Source: an uncultured Actinomycetes bacterium
GTDB taxonomy: Bacteria > Actinomycetota > UBA4738 > HRBIN12
Length of the DNA: 64,000 nucleotides
Direction: 5' to 3'
Assembly (NCBI GenBank): GCA_964640085.1
Contig: CAZXFA010000006.1
Coordinates: 51,866 to 115,865 of the forward strand
Made by a program: the position numbers and the translations under genes. Of this stretch, positions 8,066 through 26,976 are shown piece by piece. Below the pieces are notes generated by a model. It was not told the DNA's origin, did not search any database, and saw nothing but the letters and a program-made list of their open reading frames with translations. Positions within the stretch are counted from its first letter, which is position 1. Every line of letters starts with the position of its first letter.

Positions 8066-10204
8066 ATGACGCACGTCTTCGCATTCGATCACCCCCATGA
8101 CCTGAGCCTCGAGGAACTGGAGGCGCTGCTCGGGGGCAAGGGGGCGAACCTGGCGATCATGACCGGGCGGCTGGAGATGCCGGTCCCGCCCGGCTTCACG
8201 ATCTCGACCGCCACGTGCCGCGCCTACTTCGACGAGGGTTGGCCCTCCGACCTCGACGAGGAGATCCGCGAGCACCTCGCAAGGCTCGAGACATCCGTCG
8301 ACAGGCTCTTCGGCGATCCGGACGATCCGCTGCTACTGAGCGTGCGATCGGGCGCCCCCGTCTCGATGCCCGGGATGATGGATACGATCCTGAACCTCGG
8401 CCTCAACGACGACACCGCTCGGGGCCTCGCTCGCGTGACGGGGCACCCGCGGTTCGCCGAGGCGTGCCGGAAGCGCTTCGAGACCGCGTACCGCGACATC
8501 GTCGGGCTCGACCGGGTGCCCGAGGACCCCTGGCACCAGCTGCGCGGGGCGATCGAGGCGGTGTTCCGCTCCTGGATCGGGGAGCGCGCCCGCGCCTACA
8601 GGGCGCACGAGGGCATCCCCGACACCTTGGGGACGGGCGTCAACGTCCAGGCGATGGTGTTCGGCAACCGGGGCGCCGACTCGGCCACCGGGGTGGTGTT
8701 CACGCGCAACCCTGCGACGGGGGAAGCCGTCCTGTACGGAGACATCCTGTTCGACGCGCAGGGCGAGGACGTGGTGGCCGGCACGCACCCCACCGAGCCG
8801 ATCTCGGTACTCGACGGGCGCCTTCCCACGGTCGGCGAGGAGCTCCGACGGTACGCCCGCGAGCTGGAGCTCCACTACGCCGACATGTGCGACATCGAGT
8901 TCACGATCGAGCAGGGGCGGCTGTGGCTGCTCCAGGTGCGCGCCGGCAAGCGGAGCCCGCAGGCAGCCTTGCGGATCGCGATCGACATGGCCGAGGATCC
9001 CGGGTTCCCGCTCTCCCGGGGCGAGGCGGTGGCGCAGGTCGCCCGCTACCTCGTCGATCCGCCGCGCATCGCCGTGGGGCCTACGGCCGACCTCCCGGTG
9101 GCGGCGACCGGGGTGGCCGCCTCCCCGGGGATCGCCTCCGGGGAGATCGCCGTGACCTGCGACGACGCCGTCGATCGGGCGGCCGAGGGGAGGGACGTGA
9201 TCCTCGTGCGTCGCGAAACGAGCCCCGAAGACGTCCACGGCATGGCGAAGGCGAAGGGGATCCTCACCTCCGTCGGTGGTCCGGCGAGCCACGCCGCCGT
9301 CGTCGCCAGGGGATGGGGCATCCCCGCGGTCGTCGGCGCGACGGCCGTGCGGGTGGATGGCGATCACGTCGTGATCGGTAACCACCGCCTAGCCGTCGGC
9401 GACACGATCAGCATCGATGGGAGCAGTGGGAAGGTCCTCATCGGCGCCGCAGAGACGGAGACCGCGATCGCTCCGGAGGCCGCCATCCTGCTCGGGTGGG
9501 CCTCGGAGCTGGGCATCGATGTGGGCGCGGCGGCAGGGAGGGGAGGTGCGGTGACAGACAGGGGAGAAGGACCGGCCCGGGTTGCGATCACGACCGAGTC
9601 GCTCGTCCGGTCGCTGCTGATCAAGGGGTTCGCGACGCCGGCGGCGCTCGCCGAAGCCTTCGGGGTCTCCGAGGAGCAGATGGCGGCGGGGCTCGACCAG
9701 CTGGTCGCGGACGGCCTGGCGTCTGTGGCGGGGACCATGTTCCAGCTGACCCCGGATGGGAAGGCGATCGGCGCGGAGTTGATCTCGTCGGATCGCGAGC
9801 GTTGGGGCCCGGACGAAGCCGTCGCAGCTCTCGAGGCGTTCTCGGGACTGGATCTCCGCATGAAGCAGATCGTGACCGCGTGGCAGATGCGCGAGCGCGA
9901 CGGCGAGACGGTCCTCAACGATCACTCGGATCCGGCGTACGACGACGCGGTGCTTGCCGACCTCCGCGCGTTCGCCGAGGACGCTCACCGGTGGCTCGGC
10001 GTCCTGATCGAGGGGCTCTCCCGCCTCGCCGCCTATCGGGACCGTCTGGATCGAGCCGCCACCCTGGTGGCCAAAGGGGACCACCGGTACATCGCGTCAC
10101 CGCAGCTCGACAGCTACCACACGGCCTGGTTCGAGCTCCACGAGGACCTGATCCTCCTCGCCGGCAGGACCCGGGAGGACGAAGCCGCCGCCGGGCGCGC
10201 CTAG
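8066..10204 (+). CDS. Pyruvate-phosphate-dikinase-like protein: N-terminal ATP-grasp plus phosphohistidine swivel domain, no PEP/pyruvate TIM barrel, novel C-terminal region of about 240 aa
   Basis: LGGKGANLAIMT motif and GGPASHAAVVARGWGIPAVVG (PEP-utilizing-enzyme His motif). The C-terminus has no similarity to the PPDK catalytic barrel and contains a winged-helix-like segment. The start lies 2 nt after the phosphatase stop. Confidence 0.75.
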   Translation: MTHVFAFDHPHDLSLEELEALLGGKGANLAIMTGRLEMPVPPGFTISTATCRAYFDEGWPSDLDEEIREHLARLETSVDRLFGDPDDPLLLSVRSGAPVSMPGMMDTILNLGLNDDTARGLARVTGHPRFAEACRKRFETAYRDIVGLDRVPEDPWHQLRGAIEAVFRSWIGERARAYRAHEGIPDTLGTGVNVQAMVFGNRGADSATGVVFTRNPATGEAVLYGDILFDAQGEDVVAGTHPTEPISVLDGRLPTVGEELRRYARELELHYADMCDIEFTIEQGRLWLLQVRAGKRSPQAALRIAIDMAEDPGFPLSRGEAVAQVARYLVDPPRIAVGPTADLPVAATGVAASPGIASGEIAVTCDDAVDRAAEGRDVILVRRETSPEDVHGMAKAKGILTSVGGPASHAAVVARGWGIPAVVGATAVRVDGDHVVIGNHRLAVGDTISIDGSSGKVLIGAAETETAIAPEAAILLGWASELGIDVGAAAGRGGAVTDRGEGPARVAITTESLVRSLLIKGFATPAALAEAFGVSEEQMAAGLDQLVADGLASVAGTMFQLTPDGKAIGAELISSDRERWGPDEAVAALEAFSGLDLRMKQIVTAWQMRERDGETVLNDHSDPAYDDAVLADLRAFAEDAHRWLGVLIEGLSRLAAYRDRLDRAATLVAKGDHRYIASPQLDSYHTAWFELHEDLILLAGRTREDEAAAGRA

Positions 10205-10207
10205 CGC

Positions 10208-12769
10208 CTACCGGAGCAACCGGAGGCGGCTGCCGCGCGGGGACTTCTCGACCTCGATCCGCGTCGGGAGCCGGATCGCGAGCTCCTGGACGTGGGTGAT
10301 AACCCCGACCATACGGCCGTCGCCCCCGAGCTGCTCGATCGCCTCCACCACGACCTCGAGCGACTCGGGGTCCAGCGTGCCGAACCCCTCGTCCAGGAAC
10401 AGCGAGTCCAGGCGCGCCTTCTCCGTGACCGCGAGCGAGCGCACCTGCTCGGACAGCGCGAGAGCCAGCGCGAGCGATGCGAGGAACGTCTCGCCTCCAG
10501 AGAGCGTCCGCGCGCTGCGCCGCTCCTCGCCGTTCCAGGTGTCGACCACCGAGAACTCGTCCTCCTCGAACTCCAGCCGGTATCGACCCTGCGAGAGCGA
10601 GGCCAGACGGTCGGAGCCGGCCGCGGCGAGCAGCTGGAGCGCCTCGAGCTGGAGGAACGCGATCAGGCGGTCCTGGCGCAGCTCCTTGGCGAGCGCGTCG
10701 AGCACCCGGGCCCGCGCCCGCTGCTCGATGGCCTCCGCCGCGACCGCCTGGGCGTTCGCGAGCTGCTCGCGGGCGCGGACGACCCGGTCCTCCATGGTCG
10801 CGGCCTCGCGGGCGGCCTCGGTCCGGGCCGCCGTGACGTCCCGGACGACCTCGGCCATCGTCGCGGCTCGGACCGAGACGAGCCCCTGGAGGTGGGCGGC
10901 CGCTTCGCGGAGGAAGGCTTCCTCACCCTCGGCGCGCTCGGCCGCGGCCACGGCCAGCTCGTCCGCCACCTCGTCGAGCCTCGAGGCCAGGGTTCCCGCC
11001 GCCGAGGCGAGAGCTGCTGCGTCCTCCTTCCCCGCGGGTGGCGAGGGCGCCTCCCCTACCTCCGCGACCAGCGACCGGGCACGGGCGAGGAGCCCGCTGG
11101 CCGCGATCGACAGCAGGCGCGTCCGCTCCTCGGTCAGCCGGACGATCAGGGCGTCGCGCTCGCGCTCGGCCCCGACGAGCGCGTCGCGAGCGCCGGCGAG
11201 CGCCTCGTGCGCCTCGCGTTCGGTCTCCTCCAGGGCCTCGAGCTCCCGCCAACGCTCGTCGATCGTGCCCACCGGATCGTCGGGGACCGCCCCACCCAGC
11301 GCCCCGGCGAGCGCGGTCTCGATCCGTGTCGCGTCCCGCCGAGCCTTAGCCGCGGCCTTGTCGCATCGGGCGACCTCGTCGCGGCCGGCGGCGAGCGCGG
11401 CCACCGCGGAAGTCCCGAGGCGCTCGGCCTCGGCCAGGCCGACCCGGGCCTCCTCGGCCCCGGCGCGCGCCCGCTCGAGCACCGCCCGTGCCCGGTCCAG
11501 CGGGACGGCCGTGGCCCCTTCCGGGAGCTTGGCGATCTTCCTTCCGCAGACGGGACACGGATCCCCCGGGCGCACGCCGGTGCGGACCGCGACGACCAGG
11601 TCGGCGTGCCGCGCGTCCTCGAGCGCCGCCTCGGCGGCGCCGAGCGTCTCCACCGCCGCCTCGGCCCGGACGACCCAGCCGTCCACCGCCTCGCGGGCTG
11701 CCGCCTCAGCCTTCTCGAGCGCCGGGACCGCCTCGTTCGCCTCGTGGACCTCGGCCTCCGCCTCGGCGAGCGCGTCCCGCACGTCGAGGAACGCCTCCGC
11801 CTTCGCGCGGAGCCCGGCGAGCTCGACCGCCCTGCCCCACGACGTCTCGGCCCGCGCACGCGCGGCCTCGGCCTTCGTCACGCGTTTCTCGGCGGCCGCG
11901 ATCGCCTTCGTCCGCTCCTTCAGCTGGGTGCCCACCTCCGCCGCGCGCCCGGCGAGCTCACCGGCGGCCGCCGCGACGCCCCCCGCGATCGCGGCCGCCT
12001 CCCGGAGATCCCGCTCGCAGGTCCGCAGCTCGCCGATCGAACGTTCGGCTTCGGTCCAGCGGTCGGCCGCCTCCCGCACCTGCACCTCCGCCTTCGATAG
12101 CGCCGCCTCGCGCTCGGCGGCCGTCGCCGCGAGGGTCTCGGCCTCCCCGACGCCCTCGGGACTCACCCCCGCGTACTCGGTCTCCAGGAGCGCGCTCATG
12201 GCCTTGGCCTCGGCATCGGCCCCGCGCCTGAGGTCTCCGGCCCGACGTCCGAGCCGCTCGAACAGCTCCAGGCCAAGCAGATCGGTCAGGATCGCCCGGC
12301 GCTCCTTGGCGTCGCCCACCAGGAATTCCGCGAACCGGCCCTGCGGCAGCAGCACCGTCCGGGTGAACGCCTCGTAGTCCAGACCGATCGCGCCTTGGAT
12401 CATCGAGTTGGCCTCGCGAACGCGATCGGCCCCCTCGCCGGCCTGACGCCAGTCGCCGTCCCACCGCTCCACCAGCACGCTCGAGGAGCCCTTCGCGGGC
12501 GTCGCACGGCCGACCCGCCACCGCTCCCCTCCCACCGCGAACTCGAAGGAGACAGCCAGCCGCGGCTGTCCCTGGCTGATGAACTGGCTGGTCTGCTTCC
12601 CGACCCGCTCGATGTACCCGAACAGCGCGTAAGTGATCGCGTCCAGGATCGACGTCTTGCCCGAGCCGGTCGGACCCGAGATCGCGAACAGGTCGAGGCC
12701 CTCGAAGTCGATCTCCTGCCCGTCGCGGAACGCGGTGAAGCCCTTGACCTCGAGCCGCAGCGGCCTCAC
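10208..12769 (-). CDS. sbcC: DNA double-strand break repair ATPase SbcC (Rad50-like)
   Basis: N-terminal Walker A ISGPTGSGKTSILDAI, long coiled-coil, C-terminal LSGGETF signature and D-loop. The GTG at 12769 overlaps the sbcD stop (GTGA). The longer ORF to 13045 is an Arg/Gly-rich artefact. Confidence 0.85.
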   Translation of the reverse strand: MRPLRLEVKGFTAFRDGQEIDFEGLDLFAISGPTGSGKTSILDAITYALFGYIERVGKQTSQFISQGQPRLAVSFEFAVGGERWRVGRATPAKGSSSVLVERWDGDWRQAGEGADRVREANSMIQGAIGLDYEAFTRTVLLPQGRFAEFLVGDAKERRAILTDLLGLELFERLGRRAGDLRRGADAEAKAMSALLETEYAGVSPEGVGEAETLAATAAEREAALSKAEVQVREAADRWTEAERSIGELRTCERDLREAAAIAGGVAAAAGELAGRAAEVGTQLKERTKAIAAAEKRVTKAEAARARAETSWGRAVELAGLRAKAEAFLDVRDALAEAEAEVHEANEAVPALEKAEAAAREAVDGWVVRAEAAVETLGAAEAALEDARHADLVVAVRTGVRPGDPCPVCGRKIAKLPEGATAVPLDRARAVLERARAGAEEARVGLAEAERLGTSAVAALAAGRDEVARCDKAAAKARRDATRIETALAGALGGAVPDDPVGTIDERWRELEALEETEREAHEALAGARDALVGAERERDALIVRLTEERTRLLSIAASGLLARARSLVAEVGEAPSPPAGKEDAAALASAAGTLASRLDEVADELAVAAAERAEGEEAFLREAAAHLQGLVSVRAATMAEVVRDVTAARTEAAREAATMEDRVVRAREQLANAQAVAAEAIEQRARARVLDALAKELRQDRLIAFLQLEALQLLAAAGSDRLASLSQGRYRLEFEEDEFSVVDTWNGEERRSARTLSGGETFLASLALALALSEQVRSLAVTEKARLDSLFLDEGFGTLDPESLEVVVEAIEQLGGDGRMVGVITHVQELAIRLPTRIEVEKSPRGSRLRLLR

Positions 12770-13953
12770 CCGGGTGACACCTCGTCCGAGCCCACCGTCT
12801 CCAGCGCGAGCACCTCGTCGAAGGCGGCGAGCAGCTCCTCGGACGGCGGGACGCCGTGGCTGGTCCGGTGGTAGGCGATGAACTGCTCGCGCGGGTGCAG
12901 GGACGAGATCGGCTCGCCCCCAGCTCCGCCCCCCTCGGCGCGCTCGTAGACCAGGTGAACGTCGAGCGCGTTCGGCAGCTCCTCGCGGATCCGGTCGGCG
13001 ATGCCGGGCACCGGCCCCTCGGTCTCGACGAACACCCGCAGCCACGCGTCGCCGGTCTCGACACCCTGTGCCACGACGTCGTCCAGGGTCCCGCGGAGAT
13101 CGCGCAGCGGGCGCCCCGCCGAGAGGGCCACCTCGGTCACCTTCGCCGGCCGGCCCGGGTGCGCCTCGACGATCGTCACCGCCTTGCGCTGCCCCGCCTC
13201 CCCGAAATCAAGCTGGAGGAGCGAGCCTGCGTACCGCGCCGGGGCCGGCGAGCCCTTCACCGCCTGCGGCAGGTGCACGTGGCCGAGCGCCACGTAGGCC
13301 GCTCGTGCCGGCAGACGAGAGGGTGGCACCGCATACGCGATCCCGATCGTGAGCTCCCGTTCCCCACCGCCCGGCGCGACGAGGGCGCCGTCCGTGAACA
13401 GGTGCCCCATCACGATGGGGATCCGTCCTCGCGTGAACCCGGACGTCATCGCCCCGAGGAGCTCGCCCATCCCCTGGGCGTAGCTCTGGTACCAGGTCTC
13501 GCTCGCATCGAACAGCGCCGCCGCGTCGCCGAACCGGCGCTCGGGCACGAACGGGATCGCCGCGACCTCGGCCTCCTGGGCGCCGTCGCGGCTCGGGACC
13601 ACCAGCACGCCGCCGGCCTCGGGCCGGGCCACCTTCGGCACGACCTCGACGCCGAGCGGCCGCAGCAGCCTCCCGAACGCCTCCATCCGGATCGCGGAGT
13701 CGTGGTTGCCGGGGATCACGAGGACCCTGATCCCCTCCTCGTGCAGACGGAGGAACGCGTCGAAGACCAACGCATCGGCGTCGGGCTGCGGCGAGCGATG
13801 CTCGTACACGTCGCCGGCGAGCAGCACGGCGTCGACGCCCTCGTCGATCGCGATCGTCACGACCTGGTCGAGCGCCGCGGCGAACTCGTCGGTCCGCGAT
13901 CGGCCGCGGATCGCCCGTCCCACGTGCCAGTCGGCCGTGTGCAGGAACCGCAC
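12766..13953 (-). CDS. sbcD: Nuclease SbcD (Mre11-like phosphoesterase)
   Basis: DWHVG, GDVYEH and GNHD calcineurin-like phosphoesterase motifs. GTG start. Confidence 0.85.
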   Translation of the reverse strand: MRFLHTADWHVGRAIRGRSRTDEFAAALDQVVTIAIDEGVDAVLLAGDVYEHRSPQPDADALVFDAFLRLHEEGIRVLVIPGNHDSAIRMEAFGRLLRPLGVEVVPKVARPEAGGVLVVPSRDGAQEAEVAAIPFVPERRFGDAAALFDASETWYQSYAQGMGELLGAMTSGFTRGRIPIVMGHLFTDGALVAPGGGERELTIGIAYAVPPSRLPARAAYVALGHVHLPQAVKGSPAPARYAGSLLQLDFGEAGQRKAVTIVEAHPGRPAKVTEVALSAGRPLRDLRGTLDDVVAQGVETGDAWLRVFVETEGPVPGIADRIREELPNALDVHLVYERAEGGGAGGEPISSLHPREQFIAYHRTSHGVPPSEELLAAFDEVLALETVGSDEVSPG

Positions 13954-13956
13954 CCC

Positions 13957-15636
13957 TCAGTCCCCTTCGAACGCGGTGAACGGATCCCCGCCCGACGTGG
14001 CCTCGTCCGCGCGCGTGGCCCAGGACGGGAACGGGAACCGGATCTGGAGCGGCACCGGGATGTGCGGCTGCTGGAGGATCATCGAGCCGGGCTTGAGGAT
14101 CGACGCGCGGGCGCGGGTCACGGCCGGCAGGAACCCGTACTCGCTGCGCGCGGCCTCCGCCGTGTCGAGCCGCCCGACCACCCGGAACGCGCTGTTCGCG
14201 ATCACGCGCCGCTCCACCTCGGAGGCGGTCTGCTCGGCTCCCACCAGGATCATCCCCAGGGACCGGCCTCGCTCGGCGACGTCGAGCAGCACCTCCTTGA
14301 TCGGGCTCCACCCCTCGCGCGGCGCGTATCGGTTCAGCTCGTCGAGGACGAGGAAGGCGAGGGGCTCGCGGCGCCCCATCCGCTCCTTGTGCTCGAACAG
14401 GCGCTTGATCACCACGCCGGTCACGAACCGCTTGGCCCGATCGTGCAGGGCGTGGATGTCCACCACGGTTACCTGGTTCGCCTCGAAGTCGATCCGGTGA
14501 CGCTCGGGGTGCTCAGCCTCTCGCCCGACGATCAGGTGCCCCATCCGGAAGCGGGCCGCGTCGAGCCGGCGGACGAATGCCGCGACCGTCGCGTCCGACA
14601 GCCGGCCGCGCCACGGCGAGACGTCGTCCTCGACGTTCTGGCGGATCACCTCGCACAGCCCGTCGAAGTCGTGGACGGGATACCCGCCGAACACCACCGT
14701 CGCGTCGTTCTCCGGGTCCTCGTCGCACTCGCGGTCGAGCGCGGACTCGACACGCGCGACCAGGTCCGCGATCTGCGACCGCTCGTCCTCGGCCTCCGCG
14801 AACATGAATCGGAGGAGCTTCTCGCGCACGAACTCGCGCACCGTCCAGGAGTAGGCGACCACCCCCTCCGAGCGCCCCTCCACCTGCGGGATCTCGCGCC
14901 CGGCGGCGTCGGCCCGGATCGGCGCCCACAGGCCCACGCTCTCGAAGGCCCCGGAGGGCAGGCCGAGCCGCCGGTGGTCCTCGCGGTCCTCGTCCGTGAG
15001 CTTGGCGTTGGGCGTGTCGAGCCACATCAGGTCCTCGCCCTTCACGTTGAACACGATCGCCTTGGTGTTGGAGCCGTAGCTCCCCAGCACCTCGGAGTGG
15101 AACAGCGCATAGAGCAGGAAGAGGGCGTAGGTGGTCTTCGTCGCGACCCCCGACACGCCGCTGATGTTCACGTGGGCGCCACGCGTGCCGTCGAGGAAGT
15201 CCAGGTCCAGGAACACGGCTTCCCCGTCCCGGGTGAGTCCGGCCGGCAGACGCCGCTGCATCTGGTCGAAGTACAGGGCCTCGTCCCGGTCCCGGCCGCG
15301 AGCGCGGAAGGCGGGCAGCCCGGGCATCGGCGGGACGAACACCTCCGGCTCGAACCGGGTGGCCACGACCTGCGCCGCGACCGCGGTGTCGACCGGGAGG
15401 ACCCCCCGATCGACCAGGAACACATCGGTGTCGAACGTGGCCCCCTCGTGCCGCGCGCGGACGTCCTGGACGATGCCGGCGATCCGCACGCGGCCCCGCC
15501 CGGGGACCTCCGTGTCCACCACCACGGCGTCGTCGAGCTGCAGGTACGCCGTCTCGGCCACACCGACCCAGAACGTCAGCGGGGTGGCATCCTCGGTCCC
15601 CAGCACCATGCCGACCGGTTCCGAGCGCTCGTCCAC
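13957..15636 (-). CDS. herA: HerA-like (FtsK/HerA superfamily) ATPase
   Basis: P-loop-like SGVSGVATKTTY and Walker B FLVLDELNRYAP. 559 aa. The stop is 3 nt from the sbcD start. Confidence 0.6.
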   Translation of the reverse strand: MDERSEPVGMVLGTEDATPLTFWVGVAETAYLQLDDAVVVDTEVPGRGRVRIAGIVQDVRARHEGATFDTDVFLVDRGVLPVDTAVAAQVVATRFEPEVFVPPMPGLPAFRARGRDRDEALYFDQMQRRLPAGLTRDGEAVFLDLDFLDGTRGAHVNISGVSGVATKTTYALFLLYALFHSEVLGSYGSNTKAIVFNVKGEDLMWLDTPNAKLTDEDREDHRRLGLPSGAFESVGLWAPIRADAAGREIPQVEGRSEGVVAYSWTVREFVREKLLRFMFAEAEDERSQIADLVARVESALDRECDEDPENDATVVFGGYPVHDFDGLCEVIRQNVEDDVSPWRGRLSDATVAAFVRRLDAARFRMGHLIVGREAEHPERHRIDFEANQVTVVDIHALHDRAKRFVTGVVIKRLFEHKERMGRREPLAFLVLDELNRYAPREGWSPIKEVLLDVAERGRSLGMILVGAEQTASEVERRVIANSAFRVVGRLDTAEAARSEYGFLPAVTRARASILKPGSMILQQPHIPVPLQIRFPFPSWATRADEATSGGDPFTAFEGD

Positions 15637-15642
15637 CGCTCC

Positions 15643-16602
15643 CTATCCTCCCGCGGCCGACCGCGTCAGCCATGCCGTGAGTGACCGCCTGATCAGGCCC
15701 CGATGGCCGAGCCGGTGCCGGAGCCGTCCCTCCAACCCGCCGACCGGGACCAGGTTCTGCGGGTAGCGGGGGTCGCTCGGACGACCGGCGAAGGACGGGA
15801 GCATGGCGCTCACGCGATCGGCAAGCTCCCGCGCCTCGTCCCGGCCGATGCCGGCCCGGACCTCGCACCGGACCAGGCCGGCGTGATCGTGCCAGGCCGG
15901 TCGGCGGGAGGCCGGTCGCGCGTACCAGGCGTAGCGCGTCAGCGGCTGCCCCTCGTAGACCAGTCCGAACAGCGGGGTCCGCTCGCCCGGTCCCAGGCGG
16001 GCCAGGAGCGCATCGTGCTCGGGGTCGAGGTAGGCGCGCACGAACCGCTTCACCACGCCGACGACTGGGGCGGCCGTCGAGTCCAGGAAGCCGAGGCGCC
16101 CGTCGACGAGCACGATGCCCTCTCCCCGTCCCGCGATCCGGGCGGCGAGCTCCGCCTCCGCGTGCTGCATGCGCTTCTGGAGGCCGAACAGCGGCGCGTC
16201 CGGATCCGACCCGGGTTCGGACGCCGCCTCGTAGCAAAGCACCTGTTGCCCTGCCTCGACCTCGATCGTCTGGGTCCGGAGCCCACCGCCCATCACGATC
16301 GAGCGTCCGACCTCGTGCTCGGCGAACGCGGCCTGGCCGCCGCAACGCACGCCCCCCACCGCCCACGATCCGAACAGCCCCGGCGCCCGACGCCCGTCCT
16401 CCTCGCCGACCACGCGCAGCTCGACCCGCCGGACGCCGTCCACGAACCAAGCGATCCCGGGGGGAGCGGGTCCGGGTGAGATCGGCCGGGACCAGTCCGC
16501 GGTCTCGACCGATGGGTCCGCGCTGGCCGGGGTCTCATCGAACCGGACCTCGAACCCCATCCCGTGGTCCGGGGTCCAAGGATCGGCGCGCAGCGCAAGC
16601 AC
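15643..16602 (-). CDS. nurA: NurA-like nuclease
   Basis: NurA-type motifs WFVDGVRR and IVLVDGRLGF. Sits immediately upstream of the herA-like gene in the same operon. Confidence 0.45.
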   Translation of the reverse strand: MLALRADPWTPDHGMGFEVRFDETPASADPSVETADWSRPISPGPAPPGIAWFVDGVRRVELRVVGEEDGRRAPGLFGSWAVGGVRCGGQAAFAEHEVGRSIVMGGGLRTQTIEVEAGQQVLCYEAASEPGSDPDAPLFGLQKRMQHAEAELAARIAGRGEGIVLVDGRLGFLDSTAAPVVGVVKRFVRAYLDPEHDALLARLGPGERTPLFGLVYEGQPLTRYAWYARPASRRPAWHDHAGLVRCEVRAGIGRDEARELADRVSAMLPSFAGRPSDPRYPQNLVPVGGLEGRLRHRLGHRGLIRRSLTAWLTRSAAGG

Positions 16603-16753
16603 GTGCCGAAGCGTACCGGACGCATCCGACGCCTCGTGCCTGGCCGGGGCGGGTCATGTCCGCCCTAGGCATCCCGGGCCATTTCCCCCATCGGGGGGAC
16701 TACGCCGGGGCGGCACGGGCGTCGATAGGCCGGAGAGGACGCGGAAGGCACGG

Positions 16754-17992
16754 ATGTTCGGGATGTTCGGATCGCAGGCACGACCGCACCGACGGGGGCC
16801 CTGGGCCGAGGCCGACGAGCGTCGTCGGCGCGCCGAGGAACGGACCGCGCGCCTCGAGGGGGAGCTCGCCGGCGCGGGAGAGCGGGCCGGGGGGATCGAG
16901 ACCGAGCTCACCGAGGCCCGGGATCGGGCCGAAGAGGCGGAACGCCGGGTCCGGACGGCGGAGGAGCGGCTCGAGCTGGTCGCCACGCAGAACGCCGAGC
17001 TCCTCGAGCTCCTCGAGCGGACCCGGGGAGGTCGCGCCGACGGGGATCGGGAGACCCGCGAGCTCCGCGAGCGGTTGGAGGCCGAAGAGGCTCGGGCCCG
17101 GGAGCTCGAGCGACAGATCCAGGAGCCGGAGGCGCGCCCCGGGCGGCTCGACGAGCGCCCCCACCTGACCGTGGTCGTGAACGACGAGCGGGCCACCCTG
17201 AGGGAGGCGGTCGCCGCCGAGGTCCGGCGCCAGCTCACCTCGATCCTCGGCCTGACGCTTGCCCTCAGGCACGCCGACACCGAGCCGTCGGACAGCCAGG
17301 ACATGATCCGTCGGCTCGCGACCCACGCTCGGAAGCTGGATCGCCTGGTCGGTCAGATGCTCGACCTGGAGCGGATCGCGGACGGCACGTTCGAGCCCCG
17401 GCGCCGCCGCACCGACCTCGAGTCGCTGGTACGCCGGGTGGTCGAGGAGTCCCAGGACCTGATCGAGCGCGAGGTGCACCTCGAGGCCGACCACGTGGGG
17501 ATCTCGGTGGACCCGCAGCTCGCCGAGCAGATCGTCGACGCACTGCTCGCGAACGCGGGCAAGCGCACCTCGCCGGGCAACACCGTCTGGGTTCGGGTGA
17601 TCCGGCAGGAGCGCGGCGCGCTGCTGACCGTGGAGGACACGGGTCTCGAGGTCCAGGCCCGGTTCCGCGGCGCGATGCTCGCGCCCCTTAGGGACGGGGC
17701 CGGGGCCGACCGGCCGAGGGACGAGATCGGCCTGTCCGTGCTGGCCAAGCTGGCCGAGGTGCAGGGGGGTGAGGCCTGGGTCGAAGAGCGCTCGGGCGGC
17801 CGTGCGTCCTTCCGCGTCTACCTGCCCGACGCCACGGCCTCGAGGCCCGAGCGCCCTCTCGCGCTCGTGCCGGGCAAGGACGCCTCGGACCAGGCGAGCC
17901 CCGCCGAGCCGTCCCCGAACGGGAACAGCCCCACCGTCGACCCGGGCGAGCTCCCCGACGTCGAGGCGTTGCGGGAACTCCTGACGAGCTAG
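16754..17992 (+). CDS. Histidine-kinase-like protein: N-terminal coiled coil, degenerate HisKA, HATPase_c domain
   Basis: N-box LLANAGKRT, G-boxes DTGLE / GLSVLAKLAEVQGG. The H-box region AAEVRRQLTSILGL has Ala where the phospho-accepting His is expected. No TM segments. Confidence 0.55.
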   Translation: MFGMFGSQARPHRRGPWAEADERRRRAEERTARLEGELAGAGERAGGIETELTEARDRAEEAERRVRTAEERLELVATQNAELLELLERTRGGRADGDRETRELRERLEAEEARARELERQIQEPEARPGRLDERPHLTVVVNDERATLREAVAAEVRRQLTSILGLTLALRHADTEPSDSQDMIRRLATHARKLDRLVGQMLDLERIADGTFEPRRRRTDLESLVRRVVEESQDLIEREVHLEADHVGISVDPQLAEQIVDALLANAGKRTSPGNTVWVRVIRQERGALLTVEDTGLEVQARFRGAMLAPLRDGAGADRPRDEIGLSVLAKLAEVQGGEAWVEERSGGRASFRVYLPDATASRPERPLALVPGKDASDQASPAEPSPNGNSPTVDPGELPDVEALRELLTS

Positions 17993-26007: not shown

Positions 26008-26976
26008 TCAGGCCGGGGATGGGCCCGCGGCGGCGCTCTGGGGGCAGGTCGGCGAGCGCGGGCACCAGGTGCAGTACGGGCCCGGCCGGAGCGCGGGGGC
26101 CCGGCCCGCATCGGATGCCGCGGCCGAGCGGATCGCCTCGATCACGCGGTCGACCGCCCGCTCGAGGACCCGTCGGTCCACGTCCTCGGCCACCCACTCG
26201 CCCGAGTCCAGGTACAGCGTGGCTACCCGGTAGGGGGGCACGCCGAACCGCAGGGCCAACACCAGGGCGTAGAAACGCATGTCCTCCGCGTGCTCGGGCC
26301 AGGCCCGGCCCGTTTTCAGGTCGATCGCCAGACGGGTCGCCCGGCCGGGCTCGAGAGGCGACCCGGTGCCGAGCACCAGGTCCAGGGCCCCCGAGAGCAC
26401 CACCGCGCCGCCCAGGAGCTCGGCCCGGACGTGCCACTCGGTGGACGGCGCGAGCTCCCGCCGCATCCTCCGGAGCGGCGGCAGGGTGGAGCGGAACAGC
26501 TCCAGCGTCTTGGCCGCCTGCATCAGCGTCTCGTCGCGGCGGAGGCCGTCCAGCCCGTCCCAGAACCCTCGGAACGCGTCGTCCTCGACCAGGCGTTCCG
26601 CCGCCTCCTGGACCAGTCCGTGCGGGTCCCGGTCCTCGCGGCCGGCGACCTCGAGCTCGACCGCCTTGTGGGCCAGCCTGCCCGCCGCGGTCCGCGCCGA
26701 GAACGCGAACGGTCCGCGCTCCCCCGCCCGCACGGCGTCGAACAGACCCGGGCAGCGCGCCAGGTCGTTCAGGCTGGACTTGCCGAGCCAGAGCGGCTCG
26801 GCGAGCTCGAGCCTCCGCGCGGCCTCCTCGATCCGGTCGCGCAGCCGCGCGACGACGTCGGGCGGGAACACGGGCCGCTCACCGGTACCGATGAGCCCGT
26901 CCATGGTCCGCCGCTGCACGGGAGAGAGCTCGAGGGTCGCGTCCACCGGGGGGATGGTAGGAGCAGCCACCGACAA
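26008..26976 (-). CDS. PD-(D/E)XK nuclease superfamily protein (RecB/Cas4-like) with C-terminal Cys cluster
   Basis: LAIDLKTG...EDMRFYALVLAL core and C-terminal CTWCPRSPTC, typical of Cas4/AddB-type Fe-S nuclease domains. Confidence 0.55.
   Translation of the reverse strand: MSVAAPTIPPVDATLELSPVQRRTMDGLIGTGERPVFPPDVVARLRDRIEEAARRLELAEPLWLGKSSLNDLARCPGLFDAVRAGERGPFAFSARTAAGRLAHKAVELEVAGREDRDPHGLVQEAAERLVEDDAFRGFWDGLDGLRRDETLMQAAKTLELFRSTLPPLRRMRRELAPSTEWHVRAELLGGAVVLSGALDLVLGTGSPLEPGRATRLAIDLKTGRAWPEHAEDMRFYALVLALRFGVPPYRVATLYLDSGEWVAEDVDRRVLERAVDRVIEAIRSAAASDAGRAPALRPGPYCTWCPRSPTCPQSAAAGPSPA

Follow-up and report, generated by a model that had tools for sequence, protein, structure and literature searches.

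A nurA-herA-sbcD-sbcC gene cluster with a candidate DNA-damage promoter in an uncultured actinomycete and its relatives

A stretch of 64,000 nucleotides from an uncultured Actinomycetes bacterium (assembly GCA_964640085.1, contig CAZXFA010000006.1, positions 51,866 to 115,865 of the forward strand; hereafter, the window) carries four contiguous, co-oriented genes, nurA, herA, sbcD and sbcC, which probably form a chromosomal, DNA-damage-inducible operon for the processing of double-strand breaks, built from bacterial-type parts. The gene products match solved structures or family models and retain their catalytic motifs; the four genes are linked in relatives, a promoter motif precedes nurA at a conserved distance, and the surrounding housekeeping genes are stable. 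The original prediction, made from the sequence alone, had called the operon archaeal-style, which fits its organisation but not its proteins, all four of which are bacterial-type.

The biochemistry and structure of bacterial NurA-HerA are already known, as is a four-gene cluster in Oceanithermus profundus, reported in 2017 (PMC5448004), and homologues of NurA/HerA from Actinobacteria and further phyla appear in reviews (PMC8708640). The bacterial herA-nurA operon was nevertheless still described in 2026 as a Deinococcus-Thermus acquisition from archaea (PMC12977600). In the literature searched, the breadth and regularity of the linkage to sbcCD, the two clade-specific gene orders and the PafBC-type promoter appear to be under-appreciated, and older papers may hold part of this.

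Gene identities and junctions

The unit consists of four minus-strand open reading frames (ORFs), all present where they had been predicted, in a window with a G+C content of about 70-75%:

16602..15643, minus strand: nurA, 319 aa, GTG start
15636..13957, minus strand: herA, 559 aa, GTG start
13953..12766, minus strand: sbcD, 395 aa, GTG start
12769..10208, minus strand: sbcC, 853 aa, GTG start

By direct reading, the nurA stop codon TAG (15645..15643) is followed by 6 nt and the herA GTG at 15636, with a GGAGG inside the 3' end of nurA just upstream of this start. The herA TGA (13959..13957) is separated by GGG, a 3-nt gap, from the sbcD GTG at 13953, and the sbcD TGA (12768..12766) and the sbcC GTG (12769..12767) overlap as GTGA. 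Gaps or overlaps of 3-4 nt had been claimed throughout; this is accurate for the herA-sbcD gap and the GTGA overlap, but the nurA-herA gap is 6 nt. The longest ORF for sbcC, with a start as far upstream as 13045, was rejected: 12769 is the real start, because the SbcC proteins of relatives begin right at the sbcD stop. The start/stop overlaps point to co-transcription, and perhaps to coupled translation. By themselves they do not indicate the stoichiometric machine that had been read into them, and the Deinococcus radiodurans proteins, drHerA and drNurA, assemble at a ratio of 6:2 (PMC9960219).

The first gene encodes a bacterial-type NurA with predicted nuclease activity. It aligns with drNurA (7f6d_H) over its full length (residues 3-312, phmmer E=7e-14), and a NurA family profile reaches 7f6d_H at E=8e-35 and Thermotoga TM1739 (1zup) at E=1e-7; no archaeal NurA was reached by sequence with this profile. 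The AlphaFold model (mean predicted local distance difference test score, 87.7) has the RNase-H-like NurA fold, and the fold search agrees with the sequence and profile searches. Both motifs named in the original prediction, FVDGVRR with the catalytic D55 and LVDGRLGF with D167, are present, and the other key residues are W9, K185 and R279. Residues W8, D53, K201 and R309 of drNurA, which matter by mutagenesis of the Deinococcus complex (PMC9960219), align to W9, D55, K185 and R279, and the last three are invariant across 25 homologues. GTG 16602 is the true start of nurA because the N-terminal LRADPW is conserved. A public gene model of 305 aa (P0001, 100% identical) begins at Met15 and drops the part encoded by 16561..16602 on the minus strand, including LRADPW, the counterpart of the drNurA dimerisation strand, Trp8 and pin region.

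The second gene encodes a bacterial-type HerA, a predicted hexameric double-stranded DNA translocase ATPase. Its match to drHerA (7f6d_B) extends over residues 3-551 (phmmer E=1.2e-140), and a HerA family profile finds drHerA at E=2e-211 as against only E=1e-5 for the archaeal 4D2I. The protein contains Walker A GVSGVATKT (residues 160-168), the catalytic KGED within NVKGED (197-202) and pore arginines within YAPREG (437-442) and AEAARS (493-498); the Walker B LVLDELNRY, which had been singled out earlier, lies at residues 429-437. All of drHerA K175/T176, E219/D220, D487/E488, R495 and R552 are aligned and conserved in the window protein, and K167, T168, D432 and E433 are invariant in an alignment of 25 sequences. 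Mutagenesis of the Deinococcus complex showed that K175/T176, D487/E488, R495 and R552 matter (PMC9960219). Close Actinomycetota relatives share 82-91% identity with the window HerA.

Standard Pfam models miss both proteins. The window NurA scores 17.9 bits on PF09376, below the cutoff of 21, and 14 of 25 close NurA homologues match this model at E<=0.01. A Pfam scan of the window HerA gave no match, including none to the HAS-barrel (PF09378) and DUF87 (PF01935) models; these match 2 and 1, respectively, of 25 HerA family members. The models miss the whole bacterial HerA clade, although the solved orthologue drHerA does have HAS-barrel and DUF87 domains (PMC9960219). Silence of Pfam and NCBIfam was rejected as a sign that NurA and HerA are absent, since the PDB sequence, profile and fold searches all match strongly, and it is the solved-structure matches that confirm the predicted identities of the first two products. 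Because the models fail, the system is invisible in routine annotation: the depositors of plasmid and Nonomuraea gerenzanensis records used 'hypothetical protein' for NurA and either this label or 'ATP-binding protein' for HerA.

The last two genes had been assigned to SbcD, of the Mre11 family, and SbcC, of the Rad50 family, and models and motifs bear this out. SbcD scores 173 bits on TIGR00619 (sbcd; cutoff 77.65) and at most 63 bits on Mre11 models, exceeds the Pfam cutoffs for Metallophos and SbcD_C, and has all five phosphoesterase motifs (DWH 8-10, GD 47-48, GNHD 82-85, GH 183-184 and GHVH 224-227). SbcC is above the Pfam cutoffs for AAA_23 (E=9e-20), SbcC_Walker_B (E=1e-12) and SMC_N; its TIGR00618 (sbcc) score of 294 bits (E=2.7e-87) falls under the full-length cutoff of 478, consistent with a shorter protein of 853 aa. 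Its motifs comprise Walker A GPTGSGKTS (32-40), the zinc hook CPVCG (405-409), the signature LSGGE (756-760), Walker B FLDEGFG (791-797) and the H-loop ITHV (824-827).

The region upstream of nurA

A motif of the actinobacterial DNA-damage type stands immediately upstream of nurA, and the reading frame of a divergent histidine kinase gene begins beyond it:

16610..16630, minus strand: candidate PafBC/RecA-NDp-type DNA-damage promoter, by consensus match and conservation
16754..16772, plus strand: tandem 9-10 nt repeat ATGTTCGG GATGTTCGG, encoding MFGMFG, at the start of the histidine kinase gene

The candidate promoter reads GTCGG-ATGCGTCCGG-TACGCT (16630..16610), with the -26 element GTCGG at 16630..16626, a 10-nt spacer and the -10 hexamer TACGCT at 16615..16610, 7 nt from the nurA GTG. 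The PafBC consensus is tGTCgg(N10)tA(N3)T, in which the GTC triplet shows strict conservation and TAnnnT corresponds to the SigA -10 element (PMC8635444, PMC6789036). The pattern GTCRG-N10-TANNNT has only 2 matches in the window. In all 10 close relatives whose upstream sequence is intact, 6-8 nt separate the end of the motif from the nurA start codon; across 11 aligned upstream regions, GTC and TA...T are the sole invariant non-coding columns besides one upstream C, and some relatives (L006 and L010) have perfect TGTCGGTG-N8-TATCnT sites. Given the 7-nt distance to the nurA GTG, we infer a leaderless or near-leaderless mRNA; if transcription starts where the motif predicts, damage would induce a leaderless transcript of all four genes.

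Other signals were sought in the same region. The nurA upstream region has no LexA SOS box (CGAAC-N4-GTTCG), mismatched sites occurring only inside coding sequence, and a scan of 9800..17000 found no sigma-70-like promoter (-35/-10 pair) and no intrinsic terminator. A direct repeat, CCGAACATCC x2, upstream of nurA was considered as an operator and rejected: it belongs to the divergent histidine kinase gene, whose opening codons (MFGMFG) it forms.

The window contains a second, perfect motif, TTGTCGGTG-gctgctcc-TACCAT (N8 spacing; 26974..26954, minus strand), 7 nt before GTG 26946. This GTG opens an ORF for a 312-aa PD-(D/E)XK nuclease (region 26008..26974, minus strand; PF12705 E=3e-14) with no match in NCBIfam and no sequence match in the PDB. 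With the same geometry as the nurA promoter, the ORF is probably another leaderless damage-inducible nuclease gene. In about 14 Acidimicrobiia loci in which herA comes first and nurA last, a variant GTC(A/G/C)C-N10-TACnnT, with GTCAC, GTCGC or GTCCC as the -26 element, lies 6-8 nt before the herA ATG (among them L028, L029, L032, L034, L052, L058, L061, L065, L067, L069, L073 and L074), which points to a form of the PafBC-type promoter particular to this lineage.

Linkage and gene order in relatives

Among 1.84 billion representative proteins searched, 471 HerA relatives matched at E<=1e-30, and scanning one genome for each GTDB species with a HerA alignment yielded at least 597 loci, the closest 80 of which were analysed by tblastn with the four window proteins. 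In 57 of the 80 all four genes are co-oriented, and most of the other loci are cut by contig ends; herA is adjacent to nurA or in one cluster with it in 62 (57 complete and 5 partial). Where at least 1.5 kb of sequence is available downstream of herA, sbcD follows it in 65 of 71 loci. Neighbouring genes typically overlap by 1 or 4 nt (-1/-4) or are less than 20 nt apart: herA and sbcD are at most 20 nt apart in 45 of 71 cases, and sbcD and sbcC overlap or lie within 5 nt in 58 of 65. The linkage spans about nine phyla.

Linkage to sbcDC is thus what this HerA family usually shows rather than a peculiarity of one genome. The premise that bacterial SbcCD stands alone, with NurA/HerA separate or defence-associated, fails for the 65 of 71 informative loci; chance insertion, which the original prediction would have accepted had the pair been absent from the sbcCD neighbourhoods of relatives, does not fit the 57 complete clusters. 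Two gene orders occur:

Order A, nurA-herA-sbcD-sbcC (the window's): close Actinomycetota metagenome-assembled genomes (MAGs), Chloroflexota, Dormibacterota and Solirubrobacterales; also some Acidobacteriota, one Gemmatimonadota MAG and one Proteobacteria MAG
Order B, herA-sbcD-sbcC-nurA: Acidimicrobiia, Nitriliruptoria, Gammaproteobacteria, Gemmatimonadota, Bacteroidota and Acidobacteriota

The two clades of a neighbour-joining HerA tree coincide with the two orders, and the cluster has been retained despite the shift of nurA between first and last position. Intact four-gene units also occur on a cyanobacterial conjugative plasmid, on a linear plasmid of Streptomyces and on the chromosome of Nonomuraea gerenzanensis.

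Some loci are interrupted. Inserts of 1-4.4 kb with heterogeneous, unrelated-looking ORFs, some on the opposite strand, separate herA from sbcD in several of the loci:

L006, 7957..9213: herA-sbcD insert
L009, 11669..14490: herA-sbcD insert
L023, 1707..4034: herA-sbcD insert
L043, 11663..16107: herA-sbcD insert
L075 and L077: herA-sbcD inserts

Further inserts lie between sbcD and sbcC in L035 and between sbcC and nurA in L020. Two Acidobacteriota loci, L018 and L042, have a nurA-herA pair but neither sbcD nor sbcC in the 10 kb to each side, and resemble Deinococcus and Thermus.

A broader proposal is tentative, and we regard it as possible rather than likely: NurA-HerA-SbcCD would be a widespread, ancient bacterial four-component resection machine with two gene orders in about nine phyla, would serve as the main RecA-loading resection route in place of RecBCD, AddAB or AdnAB in many mostly uncultured lineages (Acidimicrobiia, other Actinomycetota, Chloroflexota, Acidobacteriota and Gemmatimonadota), and would belong to the PafBC regulon in Actinomycetota. 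If this were true, the 'archaeal' four-gene solution would not be specific to archaea, and bacterial NurA-HerA would be no Deinococcus-Thermus oddity acquired from archaea, contrary to a recent account (PMC12977600). Work on the bacterial NurA-HerA pair has drawn on Deinococcus and Thermus, in which it is not linked to SbcCD. Most carriers encode both machines as one unit, which lends comparative-genomic support to a functional connection; the Actinomycetota unit, in addition, bears a PafBC damage-response signature. Cultured carriers such as Nonomuraea gerenzanensis make cooperation between NurA-HerA and SbcCD directly testable.

Proposed pathway, rival readings and known systems

The mechanism of NurA-HerA is taken over for the window because the pair is orthologous to the Deinococcus complex (PMC9960219). 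After damage, a PafBC-like activator would redirect the housekeeping RNA polymerase to GTCGG-N10-TACGCT, giving a leaderless nurA-herA-sbcD-sbcC transcript. SbcCD would recognise and clean DNA ends, including blocked or hairpin ends. For long-range resection, a HerA hexamer would load on the end and pump duplex through its pore into a NurA dimer, whose N-terminal strand and pin, with Trp9, would split the strands while, as translocation proceeds, the Asp55 site digests chiefly the 5' strand, leaving a 3' tail for RecA. NurA-HerA would occupy the place that AddAB takes in B. subtilis addBA-sbcDC and HerA-NurA in the archaeal mre11 operon. Cooperation of the two complexes, physical or functional, belongs to the proposal, as do the transcription start, the induction and the polarity of resection.

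The chromosomal setting is one of housekeeping genes. A gene for a phosphoenolpyruvate (PEP)-utilising enzyme converges on sbcC, the two stop codons being 3 nt apart (TAG cgc CTA, 10202..10210); no terminator-like hairpin was found at these positions, where the spacing is too tight for a terminator on either strand. On the other side, the histidine kinase gene is divergent from nurA and is followed by genes for an acyl-CoA dehydrogenase, a thiolase and FtsH. Related MAGs share this upstream arrangement, FtsH - thiolase - acyl-CoA dehydrogenase - histidine kinase - nurA.

Several points weigh against a damage-inducible repair operon. The -26 element of the window is without the leading T of the PafBC consensus, and the PafBC regulator was not located within the window, no systematic search for pafBC having been made. 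On a linear plasmid of Streptomyces sp. BB1-1-1 (L081, 1..7331), herA-sbcD-sbcC-nurA adjoins Wadjet-like TIGR02680, TIGR02678 and DUF2397 genes and an ImmA/IrrE metallopeptidase gene; this is the only defence-like context seen. Deletion of nurA-herA makes D. radiodurans about ten-fold more resistant to ultraviolet light and mitomycin C (PMC9960219), so bacterial NurA-HerA is no repair factor that simply promotes survival. For archaeal HerA-NurA, work published in 2026 saw cleavage of both strands, cast doubt on a part in resection and put forward an antiviral role (PMC12977600). Finally, SbcC and AddAB of B. subtilis share an operon without being epistatic (PMC1533848); co-operonic genes need not share one linear pathway.

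Part of this evidence would suit a DNA-degrading defence module, in which HerA-NurA and SbcCD destroy linear phage or plasmid DNA instead of repairing the chromosome: the Streptomyces plasmid copy, the resistance of the D. radiodurans knockout and the antiviral role proposed for the archaeal pair all fit it. Pairs of a HerA-family ATPase and a nuclease are, moreover, established defence systems, and the PDB neighbours of the HerA profile include the defence HerAs 8yho, 8xau and 9c1m. PADLOC, however, calls no defence system here; it gives matches to the HerA and mad8 models (E 1e-5 to 1e-8) that are weak, partial and confined to the ATPase core, with none for NurA. The locus has neither the full-length model match nor the partner effector nor the defence-island or mobile context of the known HerA anti-phage systems (SIR2-HerA, DUF4297-HerA and mads). 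HerA homologues are scarce on mobile elements, being found in 6 of 72,556 plasmid records, one of them actually a chromosome, and in only 2 phage records, at 27-29% identity. The identity of HerA across the clade, given above, is unlike that of fast-turnover defence genes. With the damage-type promoter and the conserved housekeeping synteny added, a defence function is quite improbable, and the suggestion in the original prediction that a DNA-targeting defence module had co-opted SbcCD is disfavoured.

Alternatively, NurA-HerA and SbcCD could be two independent repair modules, co-regulated from one damage promoter without cooperating. The non-epistasis of B. subtilis SbcC and AddAB, encoded by a putative operon, offers a precedent, and in Deinococcus and Thermus nurA-herA and sbcCD lie at separate places (PMC5448004, PMC4663267); the herA-sbcD inserts (e.g., in L006, L009, L023 and L043) and the two Acidobacteriota loci without nearby sbcCD also fit. 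Against this stand the persistence of the linkage across phyla and through the change in gene order, the herA-sbcD junctions, which are often 4-nt overlaps or gaps below 10 nt, and the reported binding of HerA by archaeal Mre11 (PMC2288612). We consider independence unlikely. A role in chromosome segregation or clearance, with HerA as an FtsK-like pump, draws on the membership of HerA in the FtsK-HerA superfamily and on a proposal once made for archaeal HerA-NurA by Iyer et al. 2004, as cited in PMC4663267 and PMC2588523. Such a role sits poorly with the linkage to the end-processing nuclease SbcCD, with the damage promoter and with a cluster that contains no membrane or division genes. Bacteria in general possess FtsK, which also counts against it. 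D. radiodurans, for one, has both HerA and FtsK (PMC12977600), and the segregation reading is highly improbable. Processing of double-strand breaks remains the preferred function of the window's operon.

The archaeal gene order herA-mre11-rad50-nurA was reportedly described by Constantinesco in 2004. The gene listing in PMC4351679 is consistent with it, and the archaeal operon of Sulfolobus and Pyrococcus (PMC4351679, PMC2288612) likewise consists of four contiguous, co-oriented genes. The parallel drawn in the original prediction between this operon and a tightly packed, co-oriented bacterial unit is borne out, and the unit is kept in relatives. The window's proteins, by contrast, are bacterial-type: SbcD and SbcC models far outscore those for Mre11 and Rad50, and NurA has the bacterial N-terminal pin and no sequence similarity to archaeal NurA. 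The position of nurA also differs, coming first in the window, with an archaeal-like order only in the other bacterial HerA clade.

Among bacteria, the D. radiodurans NurA-HerA pair (PDB 7F6D; PMC9960219) does not adjoin sbcCD, and its connection to SbcCD was left open (PMC4663267); in the window and in most relatives, sbcD and sbcC follow directly, and in the window a PafBC-type promoter precedes the unit. The nurA-hepA(herA)-sbcD-sbcC cluster of O. profundus (Blesa et al. 2017, PMC5448004) groups the same four genes, with sbcD and sbcC downstream of herA, and was read by its authors as an archaeal-like architecture for double-strand-break repair. There it was an aside on a single genus, explained as local recruitment of SbcCD, whereas the present survey extends to about nine phyla and two orders. 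The mycobacterial PafBC (RecA-NDp) regulon (PMC8635444, PMC6789036) has the same GTC at -26, 10-nt spacer and TAnnnT -10 element, with no -35; the literature searched names no NurA-HerA-SbcCD operon as a PafBC target. In the putative addB-addA-sbcD-sbcC operon of Bacillus subtilis (PMC1533848), as in the window, a long-range helicase-nuclease stands directly upstream of sbcD-sbcC. The motor-nuclease of B. subtilis is AddAB, with a superfamily 1 (SF1) helicase and RecB-type nucleases, whereas in the window a HerA ring translocase is paired with a NurA dimer of the RNase-H-like fold.

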